Virus record (IMG/VR): IMGVR_UViG_3300031992_000007
Location: 192,001-256,000 of that record
From: a virus
Taxonomy: Duplodnaviria > Caudoviricetes
DNA length: 64,000 bases
Direction: 5' to 3' (one strand)
Under the pieces are notes generated by a model. It made no database searches. It saw only the letters and a list, made by a program, of their open reading frames with translations, and was not told the origin of the DNA. Position 1 is the stretch's first letter. Each line of letters starts with the position of its first letter. The translations under genes were made by a program, and so were the position numbers. This document shows, piece after piece, positions 11,213 to 61,939 of this stretch.

Positions 11213-11412
11213 GTTAGCCTCCTGATAAAAATAAAAGTCATAAAATTGACGGGCGTATTATACCTATATAAAAGAATGAGAGTTACCCATGTAATGCTGA
11301 TCAAAAAAGAGAGGGCCGGTTAGTAGGATAACCGACTCTCTCTTCAACTCACAACAAACATGCACTGAAGTAAAACCCAGATTGAGCACTGCTATCGATG
11401 ATGGTGGACCGA

Positions 11413-11565: not shown

Positions 11566-11707
11566 TTCTGGGTTCCTTTGTGAATGGTTATGGCTGGACC
11601 TGGGAGAACCTCTCCCAGTGTCAATCCAGTCTTTACACTTCAGTAATGTATAAGTGAGCATTTTTGATCAGCACTTTCAATTTCTCAAGTAAAGAAAGGA
11701 ATAACTA

Positions 11708-13144
11708 ATGTTTAGCTTGTTCGCACCTGGAGAAGCTCCGAGGATGACAAATCCGATAAGCTTCAATACGGACACAATGTTCGACATCATCTCAGGTCAA
11801 TTCGAACGTGGGTACGATGGCAAGTGGTACCTCAATGGCGGACTTGGTCCTGCTGTAGCTGGCATACAAGGCAGACAGCAGACATTCAAGTCTACTCTAG
11901 CTGGATCTTTTGCCATGCGCATGAGCGCCATCTACAATACCCAGATGGTTGTCTTTGACTCGGAACTTGCGTTTATAAGCGATCTCAACCGTATCGTCAG
12001 ACTAGCTGGTTCTCACGCTAGCAAGATCACAACCGACTACATTGTTCCTCTCAACGCTAAGACTGAATATGACCTTGAGTCCATCCGAAAGATGATTCAG
12101 GAACTTGGCGAGAGGAAGAAGGCTGCTGGTAAAGATGTGATGATCACAACTCCTTTCCTTGATCTGTCTACAGGTGAAAGGATCAAGTGCTTCCAGCCTT
12201 CTACGATCTTCATTGACTCCTACTCTGAATGTTTCTCAACTGCTGAGAAGGAGTTGGTCACAGACAAAGGTCTTGATGACAGTAGAGCTAACACCTTGAT
12301 GATGCTTGATGCCAACAAGAAGACTTCTACTCTGCGTAACCTTAGTCGGTATGCTGCTGATTATGGAATGCAGATAGTTGCTTCTGCTCACTACGGCAAG
12401 AAGATGAACATGGACAGCTATGCTCCTCAGCCGAAGTATCTTCCGTGGGCTAATCAGGACGACGCTCCGAAAAACGTTGGATCGAAGTGGGGATTCCTGA
12501 CATCACCTCTGATGCTCATCAACGGCTGTTCTAAACTGATGGATGATGCCAAACAGGCTAAGTATCAGCTGAACAAAGATACGCACGCAACCGATCTGTT
12601 TGAACTCGCAGTATTGGCTCAGCGGTGCAAAAAGAACTCCTCTGGCTCCTGTCATCCTTTCGTGGTGTCTCAGGACAATGGGTTACTTGAAGAAACCTCG
12701 AACTACAACTACCTTCGTTCCATGAAGGCCTTTGGTTTCCTTGGCAACAATGTGACTCACCAGAACGTCTTCCTCCCTGATGTCAGTATGACGAGGAACT
12801 CTTTCCGTGGTATCTGCGAGAAAGATGCCCGTCTGTCTAGAGCTCTTCAGCTTACAGCGCAGCTTTGCTACATCCAGAATAACTGGAGTACAGCTGGATG
12901 GCAGTTCCCCATGATGGTAGATCCCAAAATGTTGGCTGATGTCTTGTACTCTGACAAGAACAAGATGTCTGTCGACAAGATCCTGCATTCGAGAGGGTAT
13001 TGGCTTCCTGATGAGATCCCATCTGACCAGGAGTACATGAGTATCATCGACGTTCTTGAGTTCGCTGCTAACAACGGTCTGGTGGATAAAATTCACAAGA
13101 TCGAAGTTGAAGCAGAACTCAAATACAAGGCTGGAAAGAAATGA
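11708..13144 (+). CDS. RecA/UvsX/RadA-like recombinase, 478 aa
   Basis: Walker A-like GRQQTFKST, FDSE motif and Walker B-like IFIDS; resembles phiKZ-family UvsX-like proteins. Confidence 0.75.
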   Translation: MFSLFAPGEAPRMTNPISFNTDTMFDIISGQFERGYDGKWYLNGGLGPAVAGIQGRQQTFKSTLAGSFAMRMSAIYNTQMVVFDSELAFISDLNRIVRLAGSHASKITTDYIVPLNAKTEYDLESIRKMIQELGERKKAAGKDVMITTPFLDLSTGERIKCFQPSTIFIDSYSECFSTAEKELVTDKGLDDSRANTLMMLDANKKTSTLRNLSRYAADYGMQIVASAHYGKKMNMDSYAPQPKYLPWANQDDAPKNVGSKWGFLTSPLMLINGCSKLMDDAKQAKYQLNKDTHATDLFELAVLAQRCKKNSSGSCHPFVVSQDNGLLEETSNYNYLRSMKAFGFLGNNVTHQNVFLPDVSMTRNSFRGICEKDARLSRALQLTAQLCYIQNNWSTAGWQFPMMVDPKMLADVLYSDKNKMSVDKILHSRGYWLPDEIPSDQEYMSIIDVLEFAANNGLVDKIHKIEVEAELKYKAGKK

Positions 13145-26382: not shown

Positions 26383-28134
26383 CTAGGCTACGATACAACA
26401 CCAGGCAACACCAGGTGCAGTCTGTATCCCATTAACATCTGTTTTGTCAGCCGCTACCTTTGACATACTGCAAGGAGCAGTGCTCACTACCTCAGTCCCT
26501 AGAGGAGGAGGTTCAGTGAACCCTCTGCTCTTGACAGACCATACCGACGAGTCTCCTATTACAGAGTACACGTTAGGTGAAATCTCTATCATTCCCAAGG
26601 ATCTGGTGTAATAGCCAGACAACTGTCCGTTCACATCGTACTTGACGTGAGATCTTGTTTCACCCAATTCAGGGATCTCGATCTCTGGGTTGAAGTACGT
26701 CCAGAACAATCCTTCAGGAACAGTGAAGAAGACCGCACTGTTCTTGCCGAAGAGTTCATAGTACGAAGGAATGAAGATCTTGTCCTTCGTCACCACTGGA
26801 GGATAACGGGGAGTCGATCCAGGATGAGTCAAGTCACTACCAAGAGTTGTGACAGCAGCATCAGCTAGAACATTCCTAAACTCTGCTTCTAGGAAGTCGT
26901 AGAATCCAGGCATTTCTCGCTTGCCGTATACACAAACCTGTTCACCAGCACCTGCGGGCAGATCATGAGGATGGGTAGGTTCGAATTCGTAGAACGCCTC
27001 GAAATACCCAAGCTCTTTCGGGTTAACTCTGTCCGGCCACGGTGGAATAGGAACTTGGATGTAGTTGCCTTCTTCAAGAATGAAGTAGTACTTGTTCAGA
27101 TCCCACTTGACGTCCTCAGACACCGTGAATCTGGTGTGTTTATTGAGGAACTGTCTCAAGTTGGATGATACCCAATCAGCTCTTCCTCTTTCACTTGCCC
27201 AGTAGGTCTTGTCCGCCTCACTGATGTTATCAGCTGGGTTGACAACTGTCTGCCTGAGTTCATTGATAATGGAATGCTGCTCCTTGGCATCATAAGTACA
27301 CTTGGGGAGGCAGTGTCTCGACATAAAGATAACACCTGGTTTCTGAACAACAGTGTCTCCTTGGTACACAGGGATATTAGTTCCCATATGAACAACTTGG
27401 AGATCAAGAGTTCCAAGAAGTCCGTGCTCGATCTCGACACAGTCTCCAACAGCGAAGATAGTTCCGCCTTTCCCAGCACGGATAATATCCCGAACATCTT
27501 CCCAAGTGAGAGTCTTGGAACCTTCTGCATCCAAGCCAGTTGCTACACCGTACTTAGTAACAGCGAAGATGTTGTAGGAGTAGTTCATCCCTCTAGGATA
27601 AGTGTCGAACAGAGGATCCTCCGCAGTGTAGTGATCACGTACACCAGACATGGCAACTATCTCACCATCGTGGATAGTCTTGGGCTGATAGGCATCAGGG
27701 TCTCCACCAGAAGGTACGAACTTGCGTACCACGACAGTATAAGCCCAAGTTGCACTGTCAGCAGCATCTCTGTACTTCTTGTCCTTAGGATCAGTCCAAT
27801 ACAAAGTTGTGTAACCACTGTAGCTATCGATGGTGATGTTGACATCACTAACCTTATCCAGAGCACCAGCTTCAGAGAAGGTAGCTATCTCCCAGGAGTA
27901 GACGATAACCTTGATACCAGTTGAAGGATCAACCTCATAGTGTGACACGCACTTATAGACATAACCCTTGAGGTAAATGCGATCACCTACTTTGCAGGAC
28001 TCTCTTAGGAAGAAACTCTGACCAAAGTTATCCTTACTAGGTGTAGGCAGTTCGTCTACAACATGGATGAGAGAACGAAGATCTTCAGGTAAAGCGACCA
28101 ATTCATCGTTGTCGATCAGTCTGTATTTCTTCAT
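26383..28134 (-). CDS. Tail/receptor-binding paralogue with DUF6273-like C-terminal domain, 583 aa
   Basis: WTDPKD...WAYTVVVRK; W.SSNLRQFLN; DKIFIPSYYELFG; YYTRS...GVAWCCIV. Confidence 0.7.
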   Translation of the reverse strand: MKKYRLIDNDELVALPEDLRSLIHVVDELPTPSKDNFGQSFFLRESCKVGDRIYLKGYVYKCVSHYEVDPSTGIKVIVYSWEIATFSEAGALDKVSDVNITIDSYSGYTTLYWTDPKDKKYRDAADSATWAYTVVVRKFVPSGGDPDAYQPKTIHDGEIVAMSGVRDHYTAEDPLFDTYPRGMNYSYNIFAVTKYGVATGLDAEGSKTLTWEDVRDIIRAGKGGTIFAVGDCVEIEHGLLGTLDLQVVHMGTNIPVYQGDTVVQKPGVIFMSRHCLPKCTYDAKEQHSIINELRQTVVNPADNISEADKTYWASERGRADWVSSNLRQFLNKHTRFTVSEDVKWDLNKYYFILEEGNYIQVPIPPWPDRVNPKELGYFEAFYEFEPTHPHDLPAGAGEQVCVYGKREMPGFYDFLEAEFRNVLADAAVTTLGSDLTHPGSTPRYPPVVTKDKIFIPSYYELFGKNSAVFFTVPEGLFWTYFNPEIEIPELGETRSHVKYDVNGQLSGYYTRSLGMIEISPNVYSVIGDSSVWSVKSRGFTEPPPLGTEVVSTAPCSMSKVAADKTDVNGIQTAPGVAWCCIVA

Positions 28135-32573: not shown

Positions 32574-35500
32574 TTACCCAATAGTAATCAGCGGGGAGAG
32601 CCTATGTTTATTCCATATGAGGTTCTCAGCCATGCCAATAGGGTACTGTTTGTGTGAATACCCTATAGAACTCATAGTTCCATTACTAGGAACCTTCTGA
32701 GTGTCAGCAGGAGTCTGGGCACTGTTGTAAGACCATATTTCACCTCCGGCGGAGCGGAGCCACCAGTACTGGGCAGCAGTCGTCGAATCGCTGTACCCAT
32801 TCGCCAGATGCTGCCCAAGAGTGAGAGAATACTTGATGCGACTGTCATTCAAACTCGTGGCTCCGAACACCGCGAAGTTCTTATTGCACATCGCCCATTT
32901 CTTCAACCCGTACTTGTGGCCTTCCTGGTAGGGAATACCGTACCTGTTCTCATCGGCAACACCGAAGGTAATCCAACGACCGTTCGCTTCACCCGACCAT
33001 TCCTCGTAAACTCCGTTGTTGGCGGCGACGCCGCCAACAATCTGATTCGTCGACATGAGCCAGACCTTATCCACGCTCACGGTGCCACCGAGGTTGCCCT
33101 CTTTCACACCGGCACGAGGATAGAAGTCGAATGCACCAGTCGTACCGTACAGACCGTTGCGGTTGACTACAGGAACGATCGCGTTGAGGAAGTCATACGC
33201 ATCTTGGAGATCCGTCTTGTAGTTCGGGTTGACTTCATAGAGTCCGCACGCGTAAGGTTTGTTGGTACCGATATTGGTAACCTCCTCATACCTACCATAG
33301 AGATTCCTCTTGAAGTACGTCTTCCCTTCTACAGGAGACATATCTGCAGAACGCTTGTACTGACAATCAATGAACCCGTGGAGGAAGGACTGTCTGGGTG
33401 TACGCTGACGGGTGGTAACTGTGACTCCAGTCGTGGTTCCGGATTTTGTACCCTCGACCAGCACTATTCCACTCGCCCATCCCTGATTAGTATCAGCGAT
33501 GTTCGTTTCGTTAGTGTAGGGCGATTTGTTCTTGATCGCTCCAGTAAGCATGTACGTGCTATTCCCAGCAACACCTTTGTCAATGTAGACCATCTTGTAC
33601 ATTTCAGCAAGCTGATCGTACTTGAGTCCGTTGTTGACAGAAGGCTGTTCCGTCCACCACTGATCACCCTCGGTGAAGACAGGCACCCAGTTCCCGTTTT
33701 CATACTTGTACTGCATGACTGGAGATGCGCCGTAATTCCAGTATTTGCTAGGCTGGTTGAGATCCAGCTTCACACCTACAGGAACACCACCATCGATCTT
33801 CGTGTAGACAGGCTGTTTGCCGTTGTGAGCAATACTCCAGTCCTTGATGCTTGTGTTCTTCAGCCAGTGGTTGGAGTCAACAGCACCAGATGTAGACGTT
33901 TCTGTGAGCCTGACATACCCACCAGAGACGAACTTGTAGTAGACTCTGGAAGTTACGAAGTTGACATCAGCAGTTTCGACGTACTCCTTGGATGTATCGA
34001 AAGGTCCGTTGAGGTAGCAGCGGACATTCGACTGACACCAAACGTGGTTACCATAGGCAACACGTTCCAGGTTGGGAGTCTTGTTGAACAACCAGACGCG
34101 GAAGTTTCCATTGACGTTCTGGATCGGACCTTCGAAGACATCCGTAGTACGGAAGCAGAAGTTGGATCCCGAACCAGCACTGCTAGCGGCACTCTTGGAA
34201 GGGCTATATGTGCTCCCAGAAGCCCAGCTCGGGGTAGCTCCGAATATGTCCTTAGTGATAGGAATGTACTCGCCACTAGCGTCGAGCGCACCCATCGTCC
34301 AGACATAGTCATTAGCTGTTTTCTTCTTGGCAACGAAGTATCCCTGACCAGCACGAATAGGAACCAGATCACCGACAGAATACGTACCCGCGTAGGTAGC
34401 CGACTGAGCCGAAGTGATGGTAACGGATGTTGCAGAGGTGAAGTCCATCTTGATCCACGACGGAGTGTAGTAGCCGCTGACGGAAGCATTGTGAGCTACA
34501 CGTACACGACGATACACGTAGGGATCAGAATAGTCACCAACTGTGGTCTCATTAGAACCGCCACCAAGACGTTCATAGTAGAAGACACCAGGTTCGGACT
34601 TCTGACTTGATCCGCACGCCACCCATGTTGCCAGCCAGTACACTTTACCAGCGACGAACGTCTCATCCTGCGTAGGCATTTTGAGAAGAGGTTCGAGCGT
34701 CGGGTCAGCACCGCACACCTTGGAGAGGTTCATGTTCGGCGTTGTGGATATGCTGTAGTCCCCATCAACGTACTGTTGACACTTAGCCTTGACTTCGGCA
34801 GTCGCGTTCCGGTTGCCGAATATGCACGCGTAGATGTTGCGCAGATCGTCAGAGCAGTCGCGCATGTACACACGATACTCCGTGACGTAGTTCGTCTGCT
34901 TACTTGCAGCCGCATCTACTACATGCTTGCTGATAAGGGTTTCAGCAGGAACGAAGTACTTGATCAAGGAACTGTAGCTGGTACCAAAGATCAGGTCTTT
35001 CGTATCCTTTACCTTCCGAACTGGCATGAAGTAATCAGCCAGATGATTCGCACGAGGAGTGCAGGAACCGAGGTTCATCGTACCATCATCGATACAGTTC
35101 GCTCCCTTTCCAGTCCTCCGACAACCCGCACCCCAGGCATCCGTAACAGCTTCCAACGCCTCTGGGTTGTACATGCCGTTCTTTCCGGTGGGGTTAGTCT
35201 TGGAGTAGTACTTGTTTGAACCAGTGGATGCTGAATACAGTGCCTGTATGGCGCAGACCTTAGATGCAGACTCATACACCGTACCAGATACTGCATCACC
35301 AACGACTACAGTTTTCACTGTACCAGTATCGTTGGAGTAGTAGGTCTTGTTGGGCTGATACACAACATCCTTAGTGACGATGAAGTCGGCAGAACCCGTA
35401 GACCTACGAAGGTCGGAGCATATCACATTGCCACCATACTGAATAGAAGTTCCGCCGGGGACAACACGAGTCGCTTCCACGAACGGATTACGATACACAG

Positions 35501-36812
35501 TAGTGTACGGGAGTTCGCACTCACAAGGTGCGTTGGTAACAGACCACTTACCCCACGTCAGGCTAGCCACACCGTACGTTTCGGAACTTGCCGAGCCGTA
35601 CTCATCATTTTCCCGATTAGCATCGAATACTGTCTCGACGTAATGGTTGTAGGCCTGTTCCTGTGCGTACACTTCTTTGTGGGGAGTCGTAGCTGTATAC
35701 TCTGTGGTATTCAGCTTTATACAAGCGAAATAGACTCGGTTCAAATCACGAACGCTATCCCGAGTTGCAGCTCCTGCCCTCTCGTTGGTATCAAATACGT
35801 AACCAACGCCGTAGTGATCCCACCAGGAGTAGAGGTACTTAGACTGAAGAGTCATCGTGAACTTGACCTTCGAGTCATAAGGCTCGACGTTATCGAAGTC
35901 AACAACTTCGAAAGCCATGTCACCATAGTCGCCGTGATACGGGAGAGTGAGGATGGTTCCTATAGGGAAGTAGTCTTCCGCGATACCATTCTGCACCAGT
36001 TCCTTGATACCAGCCCAGTTGAGCAGGCAGTTCTGGTACGCGTAGTACGGAACACCCTTCTTGAACTCACGGAAACCAGCGTCGCCGATGGTCCAGTTGT
36101 CGGTGTTGTTCGGATCAACCAGTTCGTATTTGTACAAACCAGTTTCCGTATCCAGCATTCTGAAGTAGTAGTCACGATAGACTGGCTGACCTTCAGTGTC
36201 CAGAGTGTACGGATGAGCATCACTCGTGATGATGTAGTTAAAACCAGCAACACGACCGTTCTGATCGTCGTTGGTAATAGCATCATCGTCAGAGTACGGG
36301 AAGAGTTTGAAGTAGTGCTTTCTCGCACTGTTGTCCTGGAGTGTCATGCTGAATGAACCAAATGCAGCATAAGCATTCCTGGACTCGTTCGTGCAGAGAA
36401 CAGTACCGTCGTTCACAGTCAGAGGCATGTGACCAACCTGATGGACGAGAACAGTCTTCTTCCAGTGGGTGATTTCAGAGCCGACGATAACATCATCGGG
36501 GTCCTCCCAGGCCATGATGACTCGGAGCTGAGTACCATCGTCGTACATGCTGATACGAATGTTCTTGCAGTTACCCACAGAGAACCGACCAACATGCAGA
36601 TCCATCCAGTAATAAAGACCAGTTTCGGAGTCCTGAGCGCACTTGTAGAAGTGTGACTTGACGTAGCCGTCCTGGGAACCATCGAGCAGGTAAACTATGC
36701 CGAAGTTTTCAGCAGAAGCAGTAGGCAACTGCATGGTCACACGAGGCATGTTCTCCAGATCGAACTCAGTTGGAATCCACTCGTGATTCCGGATCGTATC
36801 CAATTGTTTCAT
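32574..36812 (-). CDS. Large tail/receptor-binding protein, 1412 aa, with a DUF6273/C-type-lectin-like C-terminus; expression locus of the cassette system
   Basis: FN3-like N-terminal motif shared with paralogues; GNHVWCQSNVRCYLN; DKVWLMS; terminal YWWLRSAGG...HRLSPLITIG; its last variable segment is duplicated at 51698-51857. Confidence 0.85.
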   Translation of the reverse strand: MKQLDTIRNHEWIPTEFDLENMPRVTMQLPTASAENFGIVYLLDGSQDGYVKSHFYKCAQDSETGLYYWMDLHVGRFSVGNCKNIRISMYDDGTQLRVIMAWEDPDDVIVGSEITHWKKTVLVHQVGHMPLTVNDGTVLCTNESRNAYAAFGSFSMTLQDNSARKHYFKLFPYSDDDAITNDDQNGRVAGFNYIITSDAHPYTLDTEGQPVYRDYYFRMLDTETGLYKYELVDPNNTDNWTIGDAGFREFKKGVPYYAYQNCLLNWAGIKELVQNGIAEDYFPIGTILTLPYHGDYGDMAFEVVDFDNVEPYDSKVKFTMTLQSKYLYSWWDHYGVGYVFDTNERAGAATRDSVRDLNRVYFACIKLNTTEYTATTPHKEVYAQEQAYNHYVETVFDANRENDEYGSASSETYGVASLTWGKWSVTNAPCECELPYTTVYRNPFVEATRVVPGGTSIQYGGNVICSDLRRSTGSADFIVTKDVVYQPNKTYYSNDTGTVKTVVVGDAVSGTVYESASKVCAIQALYSASTGSNKYYSKTNPTGKNGMYNPEALEAVTDAWGAGCRRTGKGANCIDDGTMNLGSCTPRANHLADYFMPVRKVKDTKDLIFGTSYSSLIKYFVPAETLISKHVVDAAASKQTNYVTEYRVYMRDCSDDLRNIYACIFGNRNATAEVKAKCQQYVDGDYSISTTPNMNLSKVCGADPTLEPLLKMPTQDETFVAGKVYWLATWVACGSSQKSEPGVFYYERLGGGSNETTVGDYSDPYVYRRVRVAHNASVSGYYTPSWIKMDFTSATSVTITSAQSATYAGTYSVGDLVPIRAGQGYFVAKKKTANDYVWTMGALDASGEYIPITKDIFGATPSWASGSTYSPSKSAASSAGSGSNFCFRTTDVFEGPIQNVNGNFRVWLFNKTPNLERVAYGNHVWCQSNVRCYLNGPFDTSKEYVETADVNFVTSRVYYKFVSGGYVRLTETSTSGAVDSNHWLKNTSIKDWSIAHNGKQPVYTKIDGGVPVGVKLDLNQPSKYWNYGASPVMQYKYENGNWVPVFTEGDQWWTEQPSVNNGLKYDQLAEMYKMVYIDKGVAGNSTYMLTGAIKNKSPYTNETNIADTNQGWASGIVLVEGTKSGTTTGVTVTTRQRTPRQSFLHGFIDCQYKRSADMSPVEGKTYFKRNLYGRYEEVTNIGTNKPYACGLYEVNPNYKTDLQDAYDFLNAIVPVVNRNGLYGTTGAFDFYPRAGVKEGNLGGTVSVDKVWLMSTNQIVGGVAANNGVYEEWSGEANGRWITFGVADENRYGIPYQEGHKYGLKKWAMCNKNFAVFGATSLNDSRIKYSLTLGQHLANGYSDSTTAAQYWWLRSAGGEIWSYNSAQTPADTQKVPSNGTMSSIGYSHKQYPIGMAENLIWNKHRLSPLITIG
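32595..32754 (-). repeat. Variable region of the 1412-aa gene; 160-bp exact inverted copy of 51698-51857
   Basis: Base-by-base comparison: CTCCGCCGGAGGTGAAATA...AAACATAGGCTCTCC is identical at both loci. Confidence 0.95.
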
Positions 36813-42725: not shown

Positions 42726-43269
42726 GGAGGTGTAGGATCTATAAGCAAGATGGCGTTGTGGTTAGTCTTAGGATTTCAGCACAACACAATGATAAACAAT
42801 CAAGATTTTTCGTGGTGGAACAACACTAGATTCAGTCATCTTGCAAACTCAGAACAGATAAGGCTCTCCTGGAGGTGACTATATTGGTCCAGAATCAGAT
42901 AAATTTGAAAACCACCGGAATGCAAATTGTCAACACAAATCTTCAGGACTAGCACAGGGTGTAGAAGTTAATGGATCGAATACAAATAAGCTAGCATGGC
43001 TCTCCAATGAGGTGGAAACTTCTTAATTGAAATAGGCAAAGGTGGAGGTTGGATACGTGGTGCAACAGACGGCTGGGGACTAATGCCACAAATGGAACGC
43101 AACACTGAATCCAATGGAACTAAAAGACACGAAAGGCTCTCCAGGTGGATTCGGTATTCTGTCAGCAACTCCTTGGTATGTCTACGCAGGTGGGAATGAA
43201 AATTTTAATGGCGCAGTGGTATCATCATTGATTTCCATTAATATAAACTATTTCCCCAAAGGGCTCTCC
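42726..43269 (+). repeat. Silent cassette array 1 (4 cassettes)
   Basis: GGCTCTCC ends at 42869, 43005, 43142 and 43269. Each unit reads open from GGT to CTC-TCC: GVGSISKMALW...EQIRLS; GDYIGPESDK...KLAWLS; GGNFLIEIGK...RHERLS; GGFGILSATP...FPKGLS. Confidence 0.9.
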
Positions 43270-43300: not shown

Positions 43301-43328
43301 CACCAGGGTCCCCGCGGGGACCCTGGTG
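43301..43328 (-). terminator. Intrinsic terminator of the minus-strand operon
   Basis: CACCAGGGTCCC-cgcg-GGGACCCTGGTG with an adjacent A-run on the + strand. Confidence 0.75.
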
Positions 43329-49456: not shown

Positions 49457-50497
49457 TTATTTCTTGCCAGTTGTTTCGGATGCCTTCTTGTTGGCACCAT
49501 TGAGACACTTGACCTGTTTGCCGAATGCGCGGAGGCACTTGGCGTAGCAGGCGTAGGCAGATGTCTCAGCACGGCACGCCATCTTGGCCATACTGAACGC
49601 AGAGCCGATCATGTTGCCTTGAACGTTGAGAGACTTGAGTCTCTTCATCAGTTCACCAAGACGAGTAGCTTTACCTTTATTGTCAAGGAAGTACTTGGCG
49701 AGCTCAACAGCAGCTGTAGCTGTCCAGCCAGCAGTGGAGAGGACTTTCTTCTCGCGCTTGAGAGCCTCGTCCATGATGGTAACCTTACCGTCTTCAGCCT
49801 TGAGGATGTTGTTACTCTTGGCAACGAACGCAGAGATGTCCTTGTTGAGGTTCTCTGCAACGTTCTTAAACTCGTTGGAGTTGTCACCTTCTGCCGACAC
49901 ACCAGTTATCTTAGCAGTCGAAACCAAGAAGTAGTTCTTGACATCAACATGCTTCGCGACGAATGCATTGAGTCCCTCGCATGCCTCCCTCAGATTCTTG
50001 ACCTGTTCGACAGTGAGCGTCTCCTTCTCAGCAGAGAAGTCGATGTCGTTACCTTTGGTATCGATGATCTTCTGTGCCTGAGCAGAAGCCATGTTAAACA
50101 GTTTGGCGAAGAAGTTGGCAATAGTGTCGATGATGTTGGCGATGAACTTCTTGAGTCCTTCCCAAACTTTGGTCATGTTGTCCTTGATAGCTTCTTGAGC
50201 TATCTGAGGAGTAATAGCTTCCGTGGCATAACCCGTGAGCTGGGTAAGATCTCCACCAGCGTTGAGCTGCTCGATAGCTTCCTTCGTGTAGAAACCATCA
50301 ACCAGAGCAGCTGCCAGAGTGTGAAGGTTCTCGAGTACAGCGAAGACCTCATCGCAGGCTTTGTCTTGAGCAACGAGTTCCTGATAGAACTCTTCTGCAG
50401 CCTGGACTTCGTTGAAGATGTCAATAGCTTCCTGAGCAGGTTCGAACTGACGTTCGTTGCTGGGAACAGTAGTTCCAGAAAGTGCGTATCTGTTCAT
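49457..50497 (-). CDS. Internal head protein (phiKZ inner-body-like family)
   Basis: AAGGAG RBS; acidic propeptide, ATE/AQE sites, then KVWEGLKKFIANIIDTIANFFAKLF helix. Confidence 0.65.
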   Translation of the reverse strand: MNRYALSGTTVPSNERQFEPAQEAIDIFNEVQAAEEFYQELVAQDKACDEVFAVLENLHTLAAALVDGFYTKEAIEQLNAGGDLTQLTGYATEAITPQIAQEAIKDNMTKVWEGLKKFIANIIDTIANFFAKLFNMASAQAQKIIDTKGNDIDFSAEKETLTVEQVKNLREACEGLNAFVAKHVDVKNYFLVSTAKITGVSAEGDNSNEFKNVAENLNKDISAFVAKSNNILKAEDGKVTIMDEALKREKKVLSTAGWTATAAVELAKYFLDNKGKATRLGELMKRLKSLNVQGNMIGSAFSMAKMACRAETSAYACYAKCLRAFGKQVKCLNGANKKASETTGKK

Positions 50498-50501
50498 TGG
50501 A

Positions 50502-50978
50502 TTATTCTCCTTGTGAAATTTTGGCAATACCTTTGTCTTTAATTGCCTTGATGAGTCTGTCTACAAATGGTGCAAAGCCTTTTTCTCCTGCAGTCAGGGT
50601 TCCCATGTTCTTGTTGACTTGTACAGCAGAGTCGTCGAAGAAACAAATCATCGAACAACCTTTCTCCGATGTAACCGGAAGTCGTTCTCCAATGTACTGT
50701 TCTGTCCAGTCTTGGATGACTTTCTCAACCTGTTCGAAAGTAAGTCCATCCACAGCTCTAGACTCAGCAGAACATCTAGCCGTGAAAATCTTGCACTGAA
50801 TACCAACAGCTCTCAGTTTCTTGATAAGGTTGACCATTGCTGATATTGGGTTGCCGATATGCTGCCAACCTTTGAACTCGGTGTACTCAGCAACAGTCCC
50901 GTCTAGATCAAACCCAACCCACCCTTCAGGAAGCTGTTTGGCATTCGACTCTGTTGATATAGAGTATTTAAAGGACAT
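50502..50978 (-). CDS. HAD-superfamily hydrolase-like protein, 158 aa
   Basis: DLDGT motif I, IFTAR motif II, K and FFDD; AGGAG RBS. Confidence 0.75.
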   Translation of the reverse strand: MSFKYSISTESNAKQLPEGWVGFDLDGTVAEYTEFKGWQHIGNPISAMVNLIKKLRAVGIQCKIFTARCSAESRAVDGLTFEQVEKVIQDWTEQYIGERLPVTSEKGCSMICFFDDSAVQVNKNMGTLTAGEKGFAPFVDRLIKAIKDKGIAKISQGE

Positions 50979-51016: not shown

Positions 51017-51857
51017 AGGTGAAGGATGTAATGTCATGACGTATAAGTGGGATGGGAGTCCGACGATACATCCCTACGAGAACGGTTTACCAAATGCCGC
51101 TGCTGTTCGCAAAGAACTAAAATGGCTCTCCAGTTAGAGAGGTGGAATAGAACAACAAGGAAAACATAGACAGGAAGTAAATTGTGTTGCTGGTGCGTGG
51201 TGGAACTATGGAGGACTTGATTCATATATGAATCAACCACCATGTGGATTGATCGTACACCCTAGGCTCTCCATCAGGAGGTGGGTTTCTACAAGTGCAG
51301 AAACTAACAGAGACGTATGTAAACGTAATAGCTGGCGGACCTCCTGGAACAGCGGGGTATGCACAAGGCATCTATCCGTTATTTGACGCATCGGGTTACA
51401 ATAGGCTAGGAAGGCTCTCCTGAGGTGAGACTGTAAAAGATGCCAGCAAAGAAAACACTTATTACGTTTGTGAACTATGGAGGATAGATGATTTAGGTCA
51501 ACCACAAGCACCTGAAGCATATGGACGAGATTGGGCATCTGGTTCAACTATCCTCACCAGGCTCTCCAGGGAGGTGAATACAGAAACGCTGCGAATGGAG
51601 AAATACAATGGCACTATGTCCCAACTCTCCTTAAGTGGATAAAGACGGATGGAGATTATTGGAAGTACAGTAACAATATGTCCTACACGGAATGGCTCTC
51701 CGCCGGAGGTGAAATATGGTCTTACAACAGTGCCCAGACTCCTGCTGACACTCAGAAGGTTCCTAGTAATGGAACTATGAGTTCTATAGGGTATTCACAC
51801 AAACAGTACCCTATTGGCATGGCTGAGAACCTCATATGGAATAAACATAGGCTCTCC
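51017..51857 (+). repeat. Silent cassette array 2 (6 cassettes); the last is identical to the expressed segment
   Basis: GGCTCTCC ends at 51131, 51272, 51420, 51567, 51701 and 51857. Open units: GEGCNVMTY...LKWLS; GGIEQQGKH...HPRLS; GGFLQVQKL...LGRLS; GETVKDASK...LTRLS; GEYRNAANG...TEWLS; GEIWSYNSA...KHRLS. Confidence 0.92.
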
Positions 51858-51915
51858 GAACAAAAAAAGAAAGGACCCGCAAGGGTCCTCCCTCGGGAGA
51901 AGCGAAAGCTTCTCC

Positions 51916-54102: not shown

Positions 54103-55384
54103 GGAGGTGGAATGGGGGCCAAGATAGTGAACGACAGTGGATACGGACCAAGTCATAATTACAATCCATCACCGTGTGAGTTGTTTTACGATTGGTATTC
54201 TGGTTATTACTTTACAGATAAATTAAGGCTCTCCGTGTTGGAGGTGGCGCAGACGAATCACAGGCTTGTTGGTTATGGCGGGTGTTCGGAAACAATATGG
54301 ATGAGATTGTACAACCAGGGCTTGCTTCAACATCCACAAGGTTCGAGAAATCAATATCCTACAAAGCTGTAAATAGGCTCTCCAGAGAGGTGAGACTTCT
54401 CAATCCGATATTCGCCAACAACTGTGGGGAACAAACTGCCTTTACGTAATGGGGTACGATAGTAACTATGGAAGAATAGAGGGATACTACTGGGCACCAC
54501 GTATTGAATCAGAGCGGGTTAAATATAGGCTCTCCTTTATCAGGAGGTGGAATACAAAATCAATGGAAGGTAGATTACAAAGAAGAATGCTCTCAAACGT
54601 GGTTGATTTGGGCAAATGGAAATTGGTCTAGTGGTGATCCTGGGAATCATGGTAGACAACCGATGGATAATGTAGTAAGGCTCTCCGCCGGAGGTATACC
54701 TAAAATCTCTGAAGAAAAACATGCTCAGTGGATGTTGACAGTGTGGGGCATTAATGGTATAGTTAGAGATAACTGGAGTGGGTCTAACAATGGCTCTGGG
54801 TACCCTAGTCGTAATGAAGATAGGCTCTCCAGTTTGGTATATAGGTGTATACAACCATCATTCGCAAATCTATTACATATTTACAGATATTACGACTCCG
54901 TACAGAAATTCTGGAGATGTGTATTATGCTGATGAAATTGGATGGCCCTTAGCTACTAGACAAAATAGGCTCTCCAGGTGAAGCTACGCATCCAAGTGCT
55001 ATGAACTCAGCATTTGGTTCCACTGGTGGATATGTAAATTCTAACTACACAATATCAGCTGCTACGTTTGAGCAAATATCGAACTGGCCAAATGATCCTC
55101 TATACGTAAGAGATCATAGGCTCTCCGAGGTGAGCGTAGTGGAGGTCAAGTAGCTGGCAACATCGGTCTTACTCTAACATCAGGATTTAGTGCATGGGAT
55201 AAAACATGGAATATCGATATCGTATCGCGACAATATGGGCTCTCCAAAAGGTGATGGAACTAGGATTCATTACTTTCTTGAAAGTGTTTGGGTAGCCCAG
55301 CCATGTCAAGGTCAATTCGACCAAGGCCTGAGATCCGAAGGAAACAACACATATCCAGCTAATGAAAAATACCACTGGCTCTCC
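54103..55384 (+). repeat. Silent cassette array 3 (9 cassettes)
   Basis: GGCTCTCC ends at 54234, 54383, 54535, 54686, 54830, 54975, 55126, 55245 and 55384. All nine units are open from GGT to CTC-TCC, e.g. GGMGAKIVND...KLRLS; GETSQSDIRQ...KYRLS; GEATHPSAMN...DHRLS; GDGTRIHYFL...YHWLS. Confidence 0.92.
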
Positions 55385-55463
55385 AAAACAAAAAAATAAA
55401 CCCCTACCCCACCGTGAGGCGGGGTAGGTGGTTCGTTCAGATATGCATCACTGCAAGTCTTAC

Positions 55464-56789
55464 TTAGGCATTGAGCGCAGCCTTCTCAGCGGAGAGAATG
55501 AGCGCGTTCTTGCCACGGCACCAGTTGAACTGAGCCTGGAGCTGCGAGGTGACCGTAGCCGAGAACTTCTGGATGTCCATAGCGAAATTGGCCGTGGCAT
55601 ACATGAAGTTACGGAAGATCCGGTTAGCATCACTCGAGGCCGCGAAACCAGTACCCTCATCACCCGTCTTCTTCATGTCATCGGCGATCTTCGAGATCAC
55701 AGAATCAGACACGACGTCCGGATTGACGTTAGCCCAAACGCTGATGAAGTCCTGGAGCTGCTTGCGCGAGTTCCAGCCGAGCTGGGTGTTGGAACCCTTC
55801 TGCTCGACCTTGGAGATCGTGAGACGAAGCTTTCCAGCCTCGTTAGCATCCCAGTTCGAGTCAACCTTGACGCCAATACCGAGGTACACTGCCATGACGT
55901 CCTTGATCTTGCGGATCTCGGCATACACAGCATTGAGTTCCTTCTCGGCCATAGCCTCAAGGCTACCCTGACCACCATCCTTCTTGAGCTGCTGTTCGAT
56001 AGCAAGCCAGCCCTTCTTGGACATAGCTGCGGCAGCAGAAGCCTGACGACGGCAGAACTCCATATCCTTGGCGTAACGCTTCACTGCCTCAAGCGCACCC
56101 TTGTAGGTGCAAGGAGCAGTGTTCGGAGCCGGAGCCGGAGCAACCTCAACCTTGGCGACTTCCTTAGCGGCAGCCTCCTTCTTAGCCTCAGGAGCAGCCT
56201 TAACGGCCTCCTTAAGCTCGGTCTTGGCCTTCTCGGTCTCCTCAGGGGTCGAAGCAGCAACAACCGCGTCAGCCTGCTTCTCAACACCCGCAGCAGCCGT
56301 CGCCTTGGCAGCGGCTTCAGCCTTGGGAGCTTCCGATTTGTTCTTGGTGAAGAGATTCTTCAGCCAGTTCCAGAAGCGAGAAGCATAGTCCTTGATCTTG
56401 GCCCAGAGTTCCGCGAAGAACTTCTTGATCTTCTCCCAAACGCTGTCACCAGCGGCCTCGATAGCCTTCTCCCACTTCTGGTCGAGAGCCTCAAGAGCCT
56501 CTTCGCCCATCGACTCGAGAGACTCGAGCGAGGGAGCCTGGAGATTGAGCGCAGCCTGGAGCGATCCATCCGAATCGAGAATGCCGAGCGACTCCTCACC
56601 CACACCGAAGGTAGAGATCGTGTCGAGAGCGGTCTGGAGGGACTCCAGAACCATCTCCGCTTCAGCGAGGTTACCCTGGCAGGTAGCGATGTCAGCAAGA
56701 GCAGCATTCATCCCCTCGACAGAGTCAAGGATCGATTCAGCTGCCGGCTTATCGAACGTAGTGGAGCTGATGGAATACTTAAGTGCCAT
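55464..56789 (-). CDS. Internal head protein (phiKZ inner-body-like), 441 aa
   Basis: AGGAGG RBS; SLESLE cleavage-like sites; VWEKIKKFFAELWAKIK helix; high codon bias. Confidence 0.7.
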   Translation of the reverse strand: MALKYSISSTTFDKPAAESILDSVEGMNAALADIATCQGNLAEAEMVLESLQTALDTISTFGVGEESLGILDSDGSLQAALNLQAPSLESLESMGEEALEALDQKWEKAIEAAGDSVWEKIKKFFAELWAKIKDYASRFWNWLKNLFTKNKSEAPKAEAAAKATAAAGVEKQADAVVAASTPEETEKAKTELKEAVKAAPEAKKEAAAKEVAKVEVAPAPAPNTAPCTYKGALEAVKRYAKDMEFCRRQASAAAAMSKKGWLAIEQQLKKDGGQGSLEAMAEKELNAVYAEIRKIKDVMAVYLGIGVKVDSNWDANEAGKLRLTISKVEQKGSNTQLGWNSRKQLQDFISVWANVNPDVVSDSVISKIADDMKKTGDEGTGFAASSDANRIFRNFMYATANFAMDIQKFSATVTSQLQAQFNWCRGKNALILSAEKAALNA

Positions 56790-56800
56790 ATTCCACCTCC

Positions 56801-57844
56801 TTACTTCGCCAGATCGGGGTTAGCCTTGTTACCCATGTTCGCAAGCGTCACCATCGTGTTCGCAGCGACCGACACCAGCGTGTTGTAGATGCCGATGTAC
56901 TGGTTGGCACGAGAGACGTCTTCCTTGCGAGTCTTCGCGAGCTCACCCGGAGCCTTCTTGGCTTCATCGGACGCACCATCAGCCTTAGCCGCATCTTCAG
57001 CAGCCTTGATAGCATCAGCGAACGCCTTGTCGACGCCACTAACAGCTTCCTTGGCCTTGGAGCCAATAGCGCATGCAGCGAAAGTCTTGGCGATACCGTC
57101 GGCCTGGGAAGCCCAGTCACCAACAGAGATCTCCTTCTTCTCGAACACAGTCGCGTAGTCCTCGGACTTCTCGATCTTGTTGCCCTCACCGAGCTTGAGA
57201 CCAGCAGCCTTCAGAACCTCAGCGGACGGAGCAGGGAAGGAAGCCTTAGCAGCCGCCTTCACGCAATCGAGGATCGCGTCAGCAGCCTTAAGAGCAGCAC
57301 TAACCTGCGCAGGCGAGAGCATCTTCGCCTTCTTGTCCTTGGGAAGGTACTTGAACACGCCCTTCTTCTGAGCCTCGTTGACGATACGAACAGCCTTGGC
57401 GTTCTTATCGAAGAGCTCCTTGAACCAGCGCTTGATCTTCGCCCAGAGATCCTTGAGGAACTGGACGAGCTTGCCCCAGTACTCCGAGAGCTTGCCCTCG
57501 AGGCCAGAGACATAGTTTTCCTTGCGGACCTTCTTAACAGCGGCACCGAGAGACTCAATCGCCTCGAGATCGAGGTTCTCGAGACCGAGAATCTGATCGA
57601 GCTCGTTACTGCCATTGAAGACGGCCATCGTAGTCGCCGTCACGCCGAACTTCTCGATCGACTCAACAGCGGACTTGCAGTTGTCCATCGCCATCTCAAC
57701 TTCGGCGACACGACCTTCGGCAGCAACGACCTGCTCGTACGCGTCGCTCAGACGGAGGTACGAATCAGTAAGCGCCTCGGTCGCAGCAGCGAAGTCGAAC
57801 TTGGAAGCGACAGGCTTCTGCGTAGAACCGATAGAATACTTCAT
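56801..57844 (-). CDS. Internal head protein paralogue
   Basis: MKYSIG start; GLE/AIES sites; YWGKLVQFLKDLWAKIKRWFKELF helix; similar to 55464-56789. Confidence 0.7.
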   Translation of the reverse strand: MKYSIGSTQKPVASKFDFAAATEALTDSYLRLSDAYEQVVAAEGRVAEVEMAMDNCKSAVESIEKFGVTATTMAVFNGSNELDQILGLENLDLEAIESLGAAVKKVRKENYVSGLEGKLSEYWGKLVQFLKDLWAKIKRWFKELFDKNAKAVRIVNEAQKKGVFKYLPKDKKAKMLSPAQVSAALKAADAILDCVKAAAKASFPAPSAEVLKAAGLKLGEGNKIEKSEDYATVFEKKEISVGDWASQADGIAKTFAACAIGSKAKEAVSGVDKAFADAIKAAEDAAKADGASDEAKKAPGELAKTRKEDVSRANQYIGIYNTLVSVAANTMVTLANMGNKANPDLAK

Positions 57845-57911
57845 TTTACTTGTATCCTTATTGTTGTTTGTGCTGACATGCATAAAATATAGTAGCTATG
57901 TACAGCACCGC

Positions 57912-59311: not shown

Positions 59312-59938
59312 TTACGATGCATCCTGAGGATCAAGGACAGCACTGGCAGCCTTGTTGAAGATCATGCAGTTGTGCATAACCTTGAGAGCTGCGAAGTGAG
59401 ACTCCTTGTCGATATCACCACACAGTTCACCTATGACAGTGATTGGAGTATTCGGGAACGCCGCTCTCAACACAAGTGCATTAGACACAACACAGATGGA
59501 TGTGCAATAACCGCAAAGAACGATCTCTTCGATGTTCTCCTGGGTCACACAAGCATTGGATCTAATGATACTAACTAGCTGATCTGTGCCAAATGCCTCC
59601 TTCATGATCTGATGTCCACGTGGGATGTTCACAAAGTGCATTGCGTCAGTGGTACGGCTCAAACCTTCGATCAACCGATGACCTTCTGTTTTGATGATGC
59701 AGTGTTCAATTGGGAGGTTCTTACCTTCGTACGTTTCAGCGTACGCTGTGTGACAACACCCAGCATCCTTGCTCGGATAATGTGTGTCGAGAGTAGCGAA
59801 CATCGCATATCCGCGTTTACGACACTCATTAGCGAACTCGACGATCTTCTGGTGGTTAGGCTCCTCAGGGTAAGCATACGGAAGAGCGCCTCCCTTCACG
59901 AAGTCATTCTGAACATCGATGAATACGACAACTTTCAT
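59312..59938 (-). CDS. pncA: Nicotinamidase (isochorismatase family)
   Basis: IDVQNDF, D-T-H, HC, K and GYCTSICV catalytic motifs. Confidence 0.9.
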   Translation of the reverse strand: MKVVVFIDVQNDFVKGGALPYAYPEEPNHQKIVEFANECRKRGYAMFATLDTHYPSKDAGCCHTAYAETYEGKNLPIEHCIIKTEGHRLIEGLSRTTDAMHFVNIPRGHQIMKEAFGTDQLVSIIRSNACVTQENIEEIVLCGYCTSICVVSNALVLRAAFPNTPITVIGELCGDIDKESHFAALKVMHNCMIFNKAASAVLDPQDAS

Positions 59939-59949
59939 GTTGGTTCTCC

Positions 59950-60750
59950 TTATTGTGGGTTTACGACGTAGTTAGGATAATCCTCGAAGAGCACTCCGGG
60001 GATATCGATGATATCCGATTTGAACTTGTTCCACTTGTACTTCTCGTTGACGATCTTGACAACCTGTTCATCTACCACGGAAGCTCCGTAGCGAATGTAC
60101 TTGTCAACGTCGGCGTACTTGACACCAAGGTTGTCTTCGTCGGTTTTACCAGAGAGTCCATCGGCAGGTGTCTTGTCCACCAGATGAGCAGGAAGGCCCA
60201 GCTCATGTCCAATTTGAACAACCTCGGTTGCAGTAAGCCCACGCAGAGGAGCGAAACTTCCGGCTATATCACCGTACAAAGTTCCATATCCGAGTATAGA
60301 CTCACTGAGGTTACTGGTGTTGACGACTATGCCACCAACCGCCTGGGCAACGTAGTACAGCGTAGCCATACGTATCCTGGGCGGAAGGTTGGTATCAGCA
60401 ACAGTTAGTCTCATGCCCCTGATAACATCATTGGTGATGATCTGTTCTCTGAGGTTGTTAGCAGAGGGGCCGATGTTTACGGTTATCTTGTCGATACCGA
60501 GGGTATCTGCGATCTCGTGAGAGTCGTCGATATCCGGCTGATCCCCGCAGGGCATCAGAACACCAATGACGTTCTCCTCTCCGCGGTACTTGGCATAGAG
60601 TCCCGCAGCAACAGTGGAGTCCTTACCACCACTGATGCCAATGACCCATCTGGTATTCAGAGGGAGATTGTTCTTAACTCTCCAGAACTCTATTCCTGAA
60701 CAGATCTTGGTGATAGCTTCTTTTGGATTGAACTTAAACGGTTCTTTCAT
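59950..60750 (-). CDS. nadE: NH3-dependent NAD+ synthetase
   Basis: GISGGKDS, NLPPRIRMATLY, NTSNLSE..LGYGTLYGD and KTPADGL..TDEDNLG motifs. Confidence 0.93.
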   Translation of the reverse strand: MKEPFKFNPKEAITKICSGIEFWRVKNNLPLNTRWVIGISGGKDSTVAAGLYAKYRGEENVIGVLMPCGDQPDIDDSHEIADTLGIDKITVNIGPSANNLREQIITNDVIRGMRLTVADTNLPPRIRMATLYYVAQAVGGIVVNTSNLSESILGYGTLYGDIAGSFAPLRGLTATEVVQIGHELGLPAHLVDKTPADGLSGKTDEDNLGVKYADVDKYIRYGASVVDEQVVKIVNEKYKWNKFKSDIIDIPGVLFEDYPNYVVNPQ

Positions 60751-61939
60751 TTTGTTCTCCTTGTTTATAATGCGATGGGTGTTTGCGGTAGTTGTCATAG
60801 AGGAACAAGGCAGTGCACATCAGTGCAGGCATAGACTTATCCTCAGATTGATCCGTGTTGTAGGCCCTGCTGAACAACTCGTCGATGGAGTGTCTAGACA
60901 CTGACAACTTCTCGTGCTCGTCCAGGTGTTGTGGAACAGTTAAACGTTTCACTTCATCTAGATCGAGGAAGAAGTAGTGCATGTAGTTGGTCATAAAGGC
61001 AGGATTGGTAGGAACCTTGCCAAGGTAGACCAACTTATCGATGTCTGCAGCTACGATACCAGTCTCTTCTTCCAGTTCTCTCACCGCAGCCTTTGCTGGC
61101 GGTTCGTCACACTCGACCATCCCACACGGGAACTCAACGAATTCCTTCATGAGTCCATAGCGAAGCTGCTTGACAGTGACGAACTTGTCTCCATCCTTGA
61201 CCAGGATAGTTACCCAGTCGTTAGAACGGATTTTGACTGGTTTGAAGTCAAGCTCCTTAACGTAGCTCTGAGTAAGATCGAAGATGGCTGTCGAATAGAG
61301 CAACCTGTCCTCACCTGTTACACTGGAGATGTAATCTCCAACGTTGGAGAACTGCTGTCTGATCTTGGTTGCAGATACTTCATCGTACTTGGGATCGATA
61401 GAGATCTCTTCGTGTTCGATGTCAGCAACAGCTGGGTTGATAGGAAGATTCCCGCGTCTTACGACAACCAGCTTAGCTAGTTTAAGGATATCCTCCCAGT
61501 TCGTCCACATCTTGAACATGTTGAACTCATCAAGTCCAATAACTACCTTGAACTTTTTGGGTATCCTCTCGGTGCCCAGGAGACTACACGTCGACTTACC
61601 GCGTATAAACGAAATCAGACAGTCGATGAATCTTCTCCTGTGCTGGTAGACCTCTTTGAGGGCTTCGTCGTCAATCCTGTCGAAGTTCATGATCTCGCAT
61701 TCATCCACCATCCATCTATGGCAAGATAGGGTGGAGGTGTTCTTCATGATCCTGTAGATCGTGTGAATTCTTTCGACTCCAGTCAACCAAGGTTTCTTGT
61801 CAGCTCTATGCCAACAGACCACAGAAGGAACGATGGTCACGTGATCTGCAATACCTTGGCTGATGATCTCTTCTACGATCGCTCTGTGGGCAACAGTGAA
61901 CGGATCGGCTGTTACGCCGAATATGGCTTCTGTAAGCAT
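60734..61939 (-). CDS. nadD: Nicotinate-nucleotide adenylyltransferase fused to a C-terminal Nudix (ADP-ribose hydrolase-like) domain
   Basis: FGVTADPFTVAH (HIGH-like), VIGLD...W..W, SATKIR; Nudix box CGMVE..E....AAVRELEEETG. Confidence 0.85.
   Translation of the reverse strand: MLTEAIFGVTADPFTVAHRAIVEEIISQGIADHVTIVPSVVCWHRADKKPWLTGVERIHTIYRIMKNTSTLSCHRWMVDECEIMNFDRIDDEALKEVYQHRRRFIDCLISFIRGKSTCSLLGTERIPKKFKVVIGLDEFNMFKMWTNWEDILKLAKLVVVRRGNLPINPAVADIEHEEISIDPKYDEVSATKIRQQFSNVGDYISSVTGEDRLLYSTAIFDLTQSYVKELDFKPVKIRSNDWVTILVKDGDKFVTVKQLRYGLMKEFVEFPCGMVECDEPPAKAAVRELEEETGIVAADIDKLVYLGKVPTNPAFMTNYMHYFFLDLDEVKRLTVPQHLDEHEKLSVSRHSIDELFSRAYNTDQSEDKSMPALMCTALFLYDNYRKHPSHYKQGEQNERTV

Follow-up and report, generated by a model that had tools for sequence, protein, structure and literature searches.

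How does the end of a phage tail gene come to stand a second time, letter for letter and inverted, in an array of units that have no start codons? The question arises in a stretch of 64,000 nucleotides (nt), here called the window, which covers positions 192,001 to 256,000 of the IMG/VR virus record IMGVR_UViG_3300031992_000007 (Caudoviricetes). The record holds the 265,480-bp genome of a gut-type giant phage and is rated 100% complete. The window carries an expression gene for a 1412-residue protein, putatively a receptor-binding protein of the tail fibre or tip, and three arrays of short silent units, or cassettes. The last ~52 codons of the gene (YWWLRS-AGG-EIWSYNS...NKH-RLS-PLITIG and stop) include a segment that is also the final unit of array 2. 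We consider it probable that the shared 160 nt mark a single recent, non-reciprocal (copy-type) transfer between the expression slot and the terminal silent unit, within a genome-wide library of cassettes.

The segments 32595-32754 and 51698-51857 are the sole long inverted pair in the window and are 100% complementary over 160 nt, as found both by a repeat finder and by direct reading. An earlier interpretation from the letters alone (the sequence-only reading) had called them exact reverse complements, placed the end of identity at CTCC on both sides, and identified the silent copy as the last cassette of array 2. All three statements are borne out: 160 of 160 nt agree, both loci read as claimed, and the copy is the sixth of the six units in 51018-51857. 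In coding orientation, with slashes after the CTCC motifs, the gene reads ...TAC TGG TGG CTC CGC TCC / GCC GGA GGT GAA ... CAT AGG CTC TCC / CCG CTG ATT ACT ATT GGG TAA. The array 2 copy reads ...GAA TGG CTC TCC / GCC GGA GGT GAA ... AGG CTC TCC / GAACAAAAAAAG. At the 5' boundary of identity ...GGCTCCG/CTCC in the gene faces ...GAATGGCT/CTCC in the array, and at the 3' boundary CTCC/CCGCTG faces CTCC/GAACAA. A perfect match of 160 nt cannot have arisen by chance. All 47 adenines of the copied segment are unaltered, and a search of the whole 265,480-bp genome gave no third copy of the segment. The silent copy directly precedes a minus-strand terminator (51867-51894). The two copies probably lie on one molecule, as judged from the assembly and from the same arrangement in a relative, L143. 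The expressed version of the protein, with one residue different elsewhere, recurs on a separate 4,432-bp contig.

The slot of the expression gene is best understood from its relatives. A word-index protein search found seven, all in ENA metagenome assemblies, on contigs of up to 259 kb; an exhaustive HMMER search raised the number to 11, the few extra matches being distant or partial. The 1412-residue protein ends in ...QYWWLRSAGG, the cassette and RLSPLITIG, and full-length relatives likewise show ...QYWWLRSAGG, 45-55 unalignable residues and (R/W)LSPLITIG. The anchors that bound the silent units, A-GGT-G on the 5' side and GGCTCTCC on the 3' side, also bound the slot, and they do so in an identical reading frame. 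Lineages with 41-65% protein identity share these anchors at the DNA level. All relatives retain the string GC(C/A)GGAGGT but differ by synonymous changes in the Arg and Ser codons that precede it, and AGG/TGG-CTC-TCC is invariant across lineages while the Leu, Ile, Thr, Ile and Gly codons of the PLITIG tail vary synonymously. The anchors are therefore constrained as DNA and the flanks as protein. Since the L131, L134 and L142 genes have no CTCC on the 5' side, the general 5' joint lies in GGAGGT and not in CTCC. The CTCC-to-CTCC boundaries of the sequence-only reading thus hold for the window copy; the general anchors are A-GGT-G and GGCTCTCC. The extent from CTCC to CTCC is special to the window copy in that the 6-nt linker of the silent unit, GCCGGA, equals the constant 5' flank of the gene, a signature shared by five of the 52 silent units.

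These 52 units lie at 10 loci of the genome: eight plus-strand arrays, one lone plus-strand unit and one minus-strand array of two units. The octamer GGCTCTCC occurs 20 times in the window, where 2.15 are expected, and 53 times in the genome, always within a cassette or the gene slot. It closes all 52 units, and the 5' anchor is A-GGT-G in 50 and A-GGT-A in two. Unit length is 111-153 nt (37-51 codons), and in every unit it is a multiple of 3 and the frame set by GGT is free of stops; the other frames are open in at most 13 of 52. The units have no start codons or promoters, are rich in G, S, N, Y and W, and show a median pairwise identity of 7.5%. Linkers of 0-13 nt between them shift the frame or hold stops, so that an array cannot be read through. 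An intact frame in 52 of 52 units that are not genes requires recurrent selection. Occasional expression of each unit in the slot of the gene is the best explanation of these kept frames.

Table 1. Gene, slot, cassette and array features of the window (window coordinates)
Feature	Position	Strand	Basis or detail
Expression gene, 1412-residue putative receptor-binding (tail fibre/tip) protein	32574..36812	-	Open reading frame list; seven relatives share the flanks, with unrelated cassettes between them
Constant 5' flank and 5' anchor of the slot	32741..32768	-	TACTGGTGGCTCCGCTCCGCCGG-AGGTG (Y W W L R S A G G)
3' anchor GGCTCTCC (32595-32602) and constant tail CCGCTGATTACTATTGGGTAA (PLITIG, stop)	32574..32602	-	Direct reading
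Expressed copy of the 160-nt segment	32595..32754	-	Cassette proper GGT...TCC, 32744 down to 32595, 150 nt, 50 codons
Silent copy, array 2 unit 6 (last)	51698..51857	+	CTCC, linker GCCGGA, cassette GGT (51708)...TCC (51857)
Array 1, four silent units	42726..43269	+	Hairpin 43301-43328 beyond its end
Array 2, six head-to-tail silent units	51018..51857	+	No start codons; linkers 3-9 nt, some with stops
Array 3, nine silent units	54106..55384	+	Unit starting at 54693 also has linker GCCGGA
Intrinsic-terminator-like hairpin and T-run abutting the end of array 2	51867..51894	-	Same layout at array 3 (55403-55428) and at array 1

All but two of the 52 units stand inverted with respect to the gene, an orientation in which a stray crossover would give an inversion and not a lethal deletion. 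The hairpin at the end of array 2 is predicted to stop antisense transcription before it enters the array, and the arrays of the genome other than 2 and 3 end in an A-run followed by a hairpin. The arrays thus appear insulated from the surrounding minus-strand transcription. The sole minus-strand units, in the two-unit array at genome 10854-11003, stand head-to-head with a six-unit plus-strand array (11111-11913), and L144 has a similar plus-strand site at 3552 beside its minus-strand array. As to the genome record itself, positions 1-146 equal 265335-265480, so that the assembly closes on itself though it is labelled linear.

The 3' anchor is also rare elsewhere. Outside cassettes GCTCTCC is seen three times (genome 40833, 93213 and 193467, the last being window 1467) against 33 expected, a depletion that only one other of the 7,892 heptamers exceeds. 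The full octamer is absent there, with 4.8-8.4 expected. This depletion suggests that ectopic sites are selected against. The absence of the octamer on both strands means that no other phage locus could encode a guide RNA complementary to all of it.

Other interpretations of the arrays were tried and rejected. Small minus-strand genes with Shine-Dalgarno sites of the form GGAGAGCC do not fit, as the minus frames are mostly closed and show no consistent start codon. GGAGGTG is not followed by an in-frame start, as a ribosome-binding site for each unit would be. An array of the CRISPR (clustered regularly interspaced short palindromic repeats) kind is also rejected, given a repeat of only 8 nt and 'spacers' that are coding. 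No Rfam match was found in the window.

The relatives show how quickly the slot changes content. Within clusters of 90% identity, members with unrelated cassettes agree at 97.6-99.94% in the constant part. P0004 and P0013 agree at 1624 of 1625 constant residues, P0005 and P0015 are 99.74% identical, and both pairs carry unrelated cassettes; cluster 8 has at least 8 different cassettes among 10 members that are ~98% identical elsewhere. Cassette replacement is therefore far faster than point mutation. Relative to P0005, P0018 (cluster 5) has a 5-residue tandem duplication, RDDFA-RDDFA, within its expressed cassette, and two other siblings have truncated tails after WWLRS(A/V)GG. Such variants may be frameshifted or 'off' forms, or assembly errors.

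The search for further relatives gave little beyond these assemblies. The GenBank phage collection yielded no relative, and neither did viral contigs in a protein-based locus search (protein plus alignment). The pattern of the gene's 3' flank had no match in viral contigs and one in metagenome contigs, L132. A DNA pattern of two or three GGCTCTCC at cassette spacing gave only unrelated matches in viral contigs. Among the rejected matches of such scans, L129 and L118 are small minus-strand genes with GGAGAGCC ribosome-binding sites, and others are exact-period coding repeats or arrays with a period of ~73 nt.

The coexistence of a silent and an expressed copy is found in two further lineages. 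The 240,299-bp contig L143 (product P0025) carries, 9.4 kb from its gene, a lone inverted silent unit that matches its expressed cassette at 161 of 164 nt from CCGGAGGTG to GGCTCTCC. The three differences are all transitions, one of them at an adenine of the silent copy. Its sibling L142 keeps the silent unit and expresses a different cassette, and the expressed copy of L143 is a mosaic relative to the silent copies of L142 and L143. In L144 (product P0013), a six-unit array near the gene ends in a unit for GDHFVSPVASLFWPNG...GYGLRLS; P0004, a 99.94%-identical sibling of P0013, expresses this very cassette. The same unit stands at the same array end in L146, from a second sample not linked to P0004; this contig breaks 31 nt into the unit, which is what a repeat would cause. 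The linker of the L144 silent unit, TAAATAG, bears no relation to the flank of the gene, which leaves only the anchors as shared sequence.

On this basis we propose that a unit copied between A-GGT-G and GGCTCTCC would replace about 50 residues of the receptor-binding protein with the frame kept. Silent units would be copied into the gene and change host recognition. The expressed segment, at times with the gene's 5' flank, would be copied back, preferentially at the terminator-proximal end of an array. The copying may proceed by anchor-guided template switching or by short-homology gene conversion during phage replication, with a postulated helper factor that would recognise GCTCTCC. We infer that the transfer was intragenomic. 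The exact copy is the sole evidence linking the expressed gene with the silent arrays and showing survival of the donor.

Much of what the sequence-only reading had claimed about the transfer agrees with these data. A copy-type event with the donor retained is supported by the silent unit still in the array and by the coexistence of copies in L143 (161/164 nt). Its recent date is reflected in 0 mismatches over 160 nt. A non-mutagenic character fits both the unaltered adenines (0/47) and the transitions of L143. The choice it had offered between gene conversion and retrohoming narrows: copying stands, and retrohoming falls for want of any RVT_1 match in the genome. It had also looked to relatives to tell archiving, with the silent partner always at an array end, from donor use, with the partner at any position. 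The partner is terminal in all three pairs (window, L143 and L144), trivially so in L143, where the unit is lone. As to expressed segments lacking an array match, which it had named as a counter-indication, pairs are seen in three lineages, and none was found for L131, L134/138 and L135/136 in ~30 kb.

The direction of copying leaves traces upstream of GGT. There the match to the gene's 5' flank is 1 nt in 19 units, 2 in 13 and 3 in 12; it is 5 nt in two units, 10 in four, 15 in one and absent in one. The four units with CTCC-GCCGGA are those at genome 11386, 57561, 243708 and 246693. One further unit (genome 136579) has CTCC-GCTCCGCCGGA, its linker being GCTCCGCCGGA; GGCTCCGCTCC of the gene contains CTCC twice, and this joint corresponds to the earlier one. 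Relatives show the same correspondence: in L134, where the gene has GCAGGA, a linker with this lineage-specific hexamer occurs, and GCCGGA and GCTCCGCAGGA occur in L135/136. Since the flank hexamer is functional only in the gene, these signature units, or their 5' ends, were once copied from gene to array. The archiving alternative of the sequence-only reading is thus upheld as far as gene-to-array copying goes (flank signature, three of five units array-terminal). Archiving alone is not, since donor use is also seen when L144/L146 are compared with P0004. We conclude that traffic probably runs both ways, from array to gene and from gene to array, as judged by comparing these sequences. For the transfer in the window itself, donor use and archiving are about equally probable. 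Archiving is favoured by the flank signature and the terminal position of the copy. Donor use is favoured by the L144/P0004 pair, which lacks the flank signature, and by the presence of only one silent copy, whereas an archived cassette should also keep its original donor. The 14-nt 5' match could also make signature units preferred donors.

Several observations weigh against the proposed copy-type transfer. No enzyme for the transfer was found with Pfam models over the whole genome. RVT_1 had no match in the complete 265-kb genome, where controls matched; Phage_integrase and Resolvase had none at E<=1, a search that highly divergent enzymes could escape; and Y1_Tnp, RecA and YqaJ had none. 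The HNH model gave one sub-threshold match in the genome, and the genes flanking the three window arrays hold no nuclease or recombinase domain. The proteins of this phage are very divergent, so these negatives are weak. The anchors, at 5 and 8 nt, are far shorter than what ordinary homologous recombination uses. Switching within a population would rest on a between-sample comparison of near-identical strains, and the linkage of the two copies on the assembly. The preference for array ends comes from few cases: three of the five flank-signature units are terminal against 0.79 expected (p ~0.03), and for the two informative pairs the chance of a terminal position is ~0.19 x 0.17 = 0.03. In L131, L134/138 and L135/136 the ~30 kb examined showed no silent counterpart of the expressed cassette. 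An AlphaFold2 model of the last 350 residues from an 18-row alignment was unusable (predicted local distance difference test score, pLDDT, 34.6), and the C-terminal fold was not obtained.

Some relatives also depart from pure replacement. In L134 (15121-15640) the slot holds three tandem cassettes between WWLRSAGG and the PLITIG tail; the first two are read, and the protein ends in RLSE and stop. Its sibling P0019 has two cassettes in the slot, the first being the third of L134. In L132 (Ga0265298_10027905, reverse strand, 5700-6030) a two-unit silent array after a terminator is fused to the gene's 3' flank (PLITIG, stop and ~20 nt), 46 nt of which are identical to that of L131. The L132 arrangement looks like one product of a single crossover, or of an inversion, at GGCTCTCC, and together the three suggest insertions or single crossovers at this site. 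In the more distant L133 (1-5700) cassettes are paired and convergent. Palindromes of the form GGCTCTCC-N4-15-GGAGAGCC lie where 3' ends meet, and ACACTT-N-AAGTGT palindromes where 5' ends meet; AGTGT, the 5' anchor in this lineage, matches CGT AGT GTA of the gene. A fold-back artefact within the expressed cassette terminates the contig.

The main rival is conservative, integron- or shufflon-like mobilisation between genome copies, which we consider unlikely. An unrecognised recombinase would cut at GGCTCTCC and excise or exchange units, and the duplicate would arise via the many genome copies in a cell. This accounts well for an invariant 3' site that is purged from the rest of the genome, for the multi-cassette slots of L134 and P0019, and for L132 as a single-crossover product of array and gene at GGCTCTCC. 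Cassettes that are not syntenic between relatives, and a window copy that spans CTCC to CTCC with its linker, would also be expected. Against it, neither a recombinase of the tyrosine or serine type nor a Y1 transposase or reverse transcriptase is detectable, which supports the earlier claim as far as excision or inversion by a recognisable enzyme is concerned. Conservation extends over just 8 nt and includes no binding arms on either side, and the first unit of each array and lone units have no upstream site. Moreover, linkers would enter the gene, and 47 of 52 would destroy its frame, whereas SAGG is what every in-frame expressed gene reads. Linkers also differ between homologous cassettes in different arrays and genomes.

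It is improbable that variation comes solely from recombination among co-infecting relatives, with the arrays as relics and the exact copy a rare accidental duplication. Cassettes are indeed shuffled between relatives, the expressed copy of L143 is a mosaic, and three relatives have no silent copy near the gene. However, intact frames in 52 of 52 units that are not genes point to recurrent selection via expression, silent and expressed copies are paired in three lineages, and the anchors are conserved as DNA at 41-65% protein identity.

An assembly artefact, in which a gene variant and an array variant of different sub-populations were joined or the segment was duplicated, is more improbable still. 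The genome was assembled from a metagenome, a repeat of 160 nt is longer than the usual k-mers, and contigs of relatives do break in cassettes (the L133 fold-back, and L146 inside a unit). However, each copy is bordered left and right by unique sequence, which requires reads for all four junctions; the version in the gene is found again on another contig; and the same coexistence is seen in an independent 240-kb assembly with ~136x coverage by contig name. Transfer of the diversity-generating retroelement (DGR) type, in which RNA of an array unit would be reverse-transcribed and homed into the gene, is close to refuted: the target resembles the DUF6273/C-type-lectin scaffold that DGRs diversify at its C-terminus (PMC10743442; bioRxiv 10.1101/2024.10.15.618418) and arrays and gene lie on opposite strands, but the complete genome has no RVT_1 match, none of 47 adenines is altered, the 52 'templates' are mutually unrelated (median pairwise identity 7.5%) instead of one template repeat, and the differences in L143 are not adenine-specific.

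Copy-type transfer thus remains the preferred reading. The anchors are only 5 and 8 nt long, are conserved as DNA across distant relatives and are purged elsewhere, so the mechanism likely involves new sequence-specific enzymology; if so, it would be of interest for targeted in-frame replacement of segments. A further step, which we regard as possible but doubtful, would be a dedicated copy-and-paste machine, so far only in this giant-phage clade. The postulated factor recognising GCTCTCC would copy ~130-nt cassettes both ways and append used tips at terminator-proximal ends, and the arrays would be both a donor library and a running archive of host-recognition states. Such a machine would add a third principle of programmed phage host-range variation, with new enzymology. 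Several near-identical genomes with different expressed cassettes are already in public assemblies, so the question is directly testable.

The role assigned to the 1412-residue protein, putatively receptor binding, draws on its surroundings and on distant similarity. The gene lies in a structural-gene region, adjoins a 322-residue reading frame matching the tail-fibre family phrog_3904, and has paralogs of phiKZ-type internal head proteins nearby. The protein itself has no Pfam or PHROG match, and a profile search of PDB sequences gave no match. By language-model features its last 198 residues are nearest to DUF6273 clusters (29/30, score 0.96). The Pfam model of DUF6273 (PF19789) does not match it at E<=10, and matches the relative P0020 at E=0.019 with 15.3 bits, where the cut-off is 23.5. 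An hhalign comparison with a true DUF6273 neighbour family gave weak profile similarity (Prob 34%, E=4e-4, 46 columns). The motifs DKVWLMS...GG and YWWLRS parallel DKIFIPS...FG and YYTRS of the neighbour. DUF6273 is a C-type-lectin-like domain of phage receptor-binding proteins, and DGRs target its C-terminal variable region (PMC10743442; bioRxiv 10.1101/2024.10.15.618418). By analogy, the cassette may be the ligand-contacting part of a DUF6273 or C-type-lectin-like tip. Should the assignment hold, the phage would vary this very surface via a stored library and not by mutagenesis.

A true DUF6273 protein is found two genes downstream of the cassette gene: a 583-residue protein at 26383-28134 (minus strand; 34.9 bits, E=1.4e-9), with neither cassette slot nor DGR. 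Relatives carry two such genes at this position (L142 16226-17878 and 17900-19486), and the tail module may carry several lectin-like binders. Among other genes of the window, paralogs resembling phiKZ-type internal head proteins are interleaved with the arrays at 49457-50527, 55464-56789 and 56801-57883 (minus strand), the last alone passing the Pfam cut-off, at 28 bits. An isochorismatase-family gene (59312-59938, minus strand, E=1.9e-18) adjoins a gene for nicotinamide adenine dinucleotide (NAD) synthase (59950-60798, minus strand, E=2.3e-47), which suggests phage-encoded NAD salvage.

The closest parallels come from bacterial antigenic variation. Borrelia vlsE/vls, Neisseria pilE/pilS and Treponema pallidum tprK vary an antigen from silent cassettes by non-reciprocal gene conversion. 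The variable region of vls is bounded by 17 bp repeats and that of tprK by 4 bp repeats, and the vls arrays are mostly inverted relative to their gene, as are those of the phage. The phage system resembles these in having a single expression site with promoter-less, start-less donors (52 units), in leaving the donor intact (160/160 nt; 161/164 in L143), and in bounding slot and donors by the same short repeats. It differs in that the carrier is a virus and not a cell, and the target a host-recognition protein and not an antigen hidden from immunity. Whole cassettes, and not variable segments, are exchanged between two fixed anchors. Here the donors are spread over 10 loci in 265 kb, the 3' anchor is depleted elsewhere, and there is evidence of back-copying.

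DGRs acting on DUF6273/C-type-lectin proteins of gut phages serve the same purpose while the rest of the protein stays constant (PMC10743442; bioRxiv 10.1101/2024.10.15.618418). The scaffold and position are probably also the same, with the variable stretch following a WWLRS-like motif where the domain reaches its C-terminal end. In contrast to DGRs, the present genome shows no reverse transcriptase match, no template repeat and no adenine mutagenesis, and draws on a finite stored library of 52 unrelated sequences instead of mutation.

The R64 shufflon (Rci/sfx) and the Min, Gin and Cin systems work by conservative inversion, in which a dedicated recombinase acts at 19-26-bp sites and everything downstream of one crossover is swapped. 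The Rin shufflon of Bifidobacterium prophages is reportedly a multiple-inversion cassette switch. Like the phage arrays, shufflon and Min systems store start-less alternative C-terminal ends of an adhesin or tail fibre near or opposite the gene and alter host range. Here, however, the segment is present twice with the donor kept, no recombinase is detectable, and two anchors bound an internal segment of ~50 codons, so that the constant PLITIG tail is retained. Integrons differ as well: the phage has no integrase match, and its boundaries are motifs of 8 and 5 nt and not attC-like imperfect palindromes. In the gp38 adhesins of T-even phages, hypervariable segments are exchanged between phages at glycine-rich motifs. 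Both cases use short conserved motifs in a phage adhesin as recombination points that swap specificity segments; gp38 has neither an intragenomic silent library nor invariant DNA anchors.

Full-text literature searches gave us no description of a phage silent-cassette system of this sort, and one for the WWLRS motif led to unrelated papers only. To our knowledge, phages reprogramme receptor-binding proteins by two routes, DGR mutagenesis and recombinase-driven inversion of alternative ends. The present locus points to a third, in which about 50 ready-made binding segments are stored and installed by copy-type transfer. This would be the logic of bacterial and trypanosome antigenic variation, used here by a virus for attack instead of evasion.

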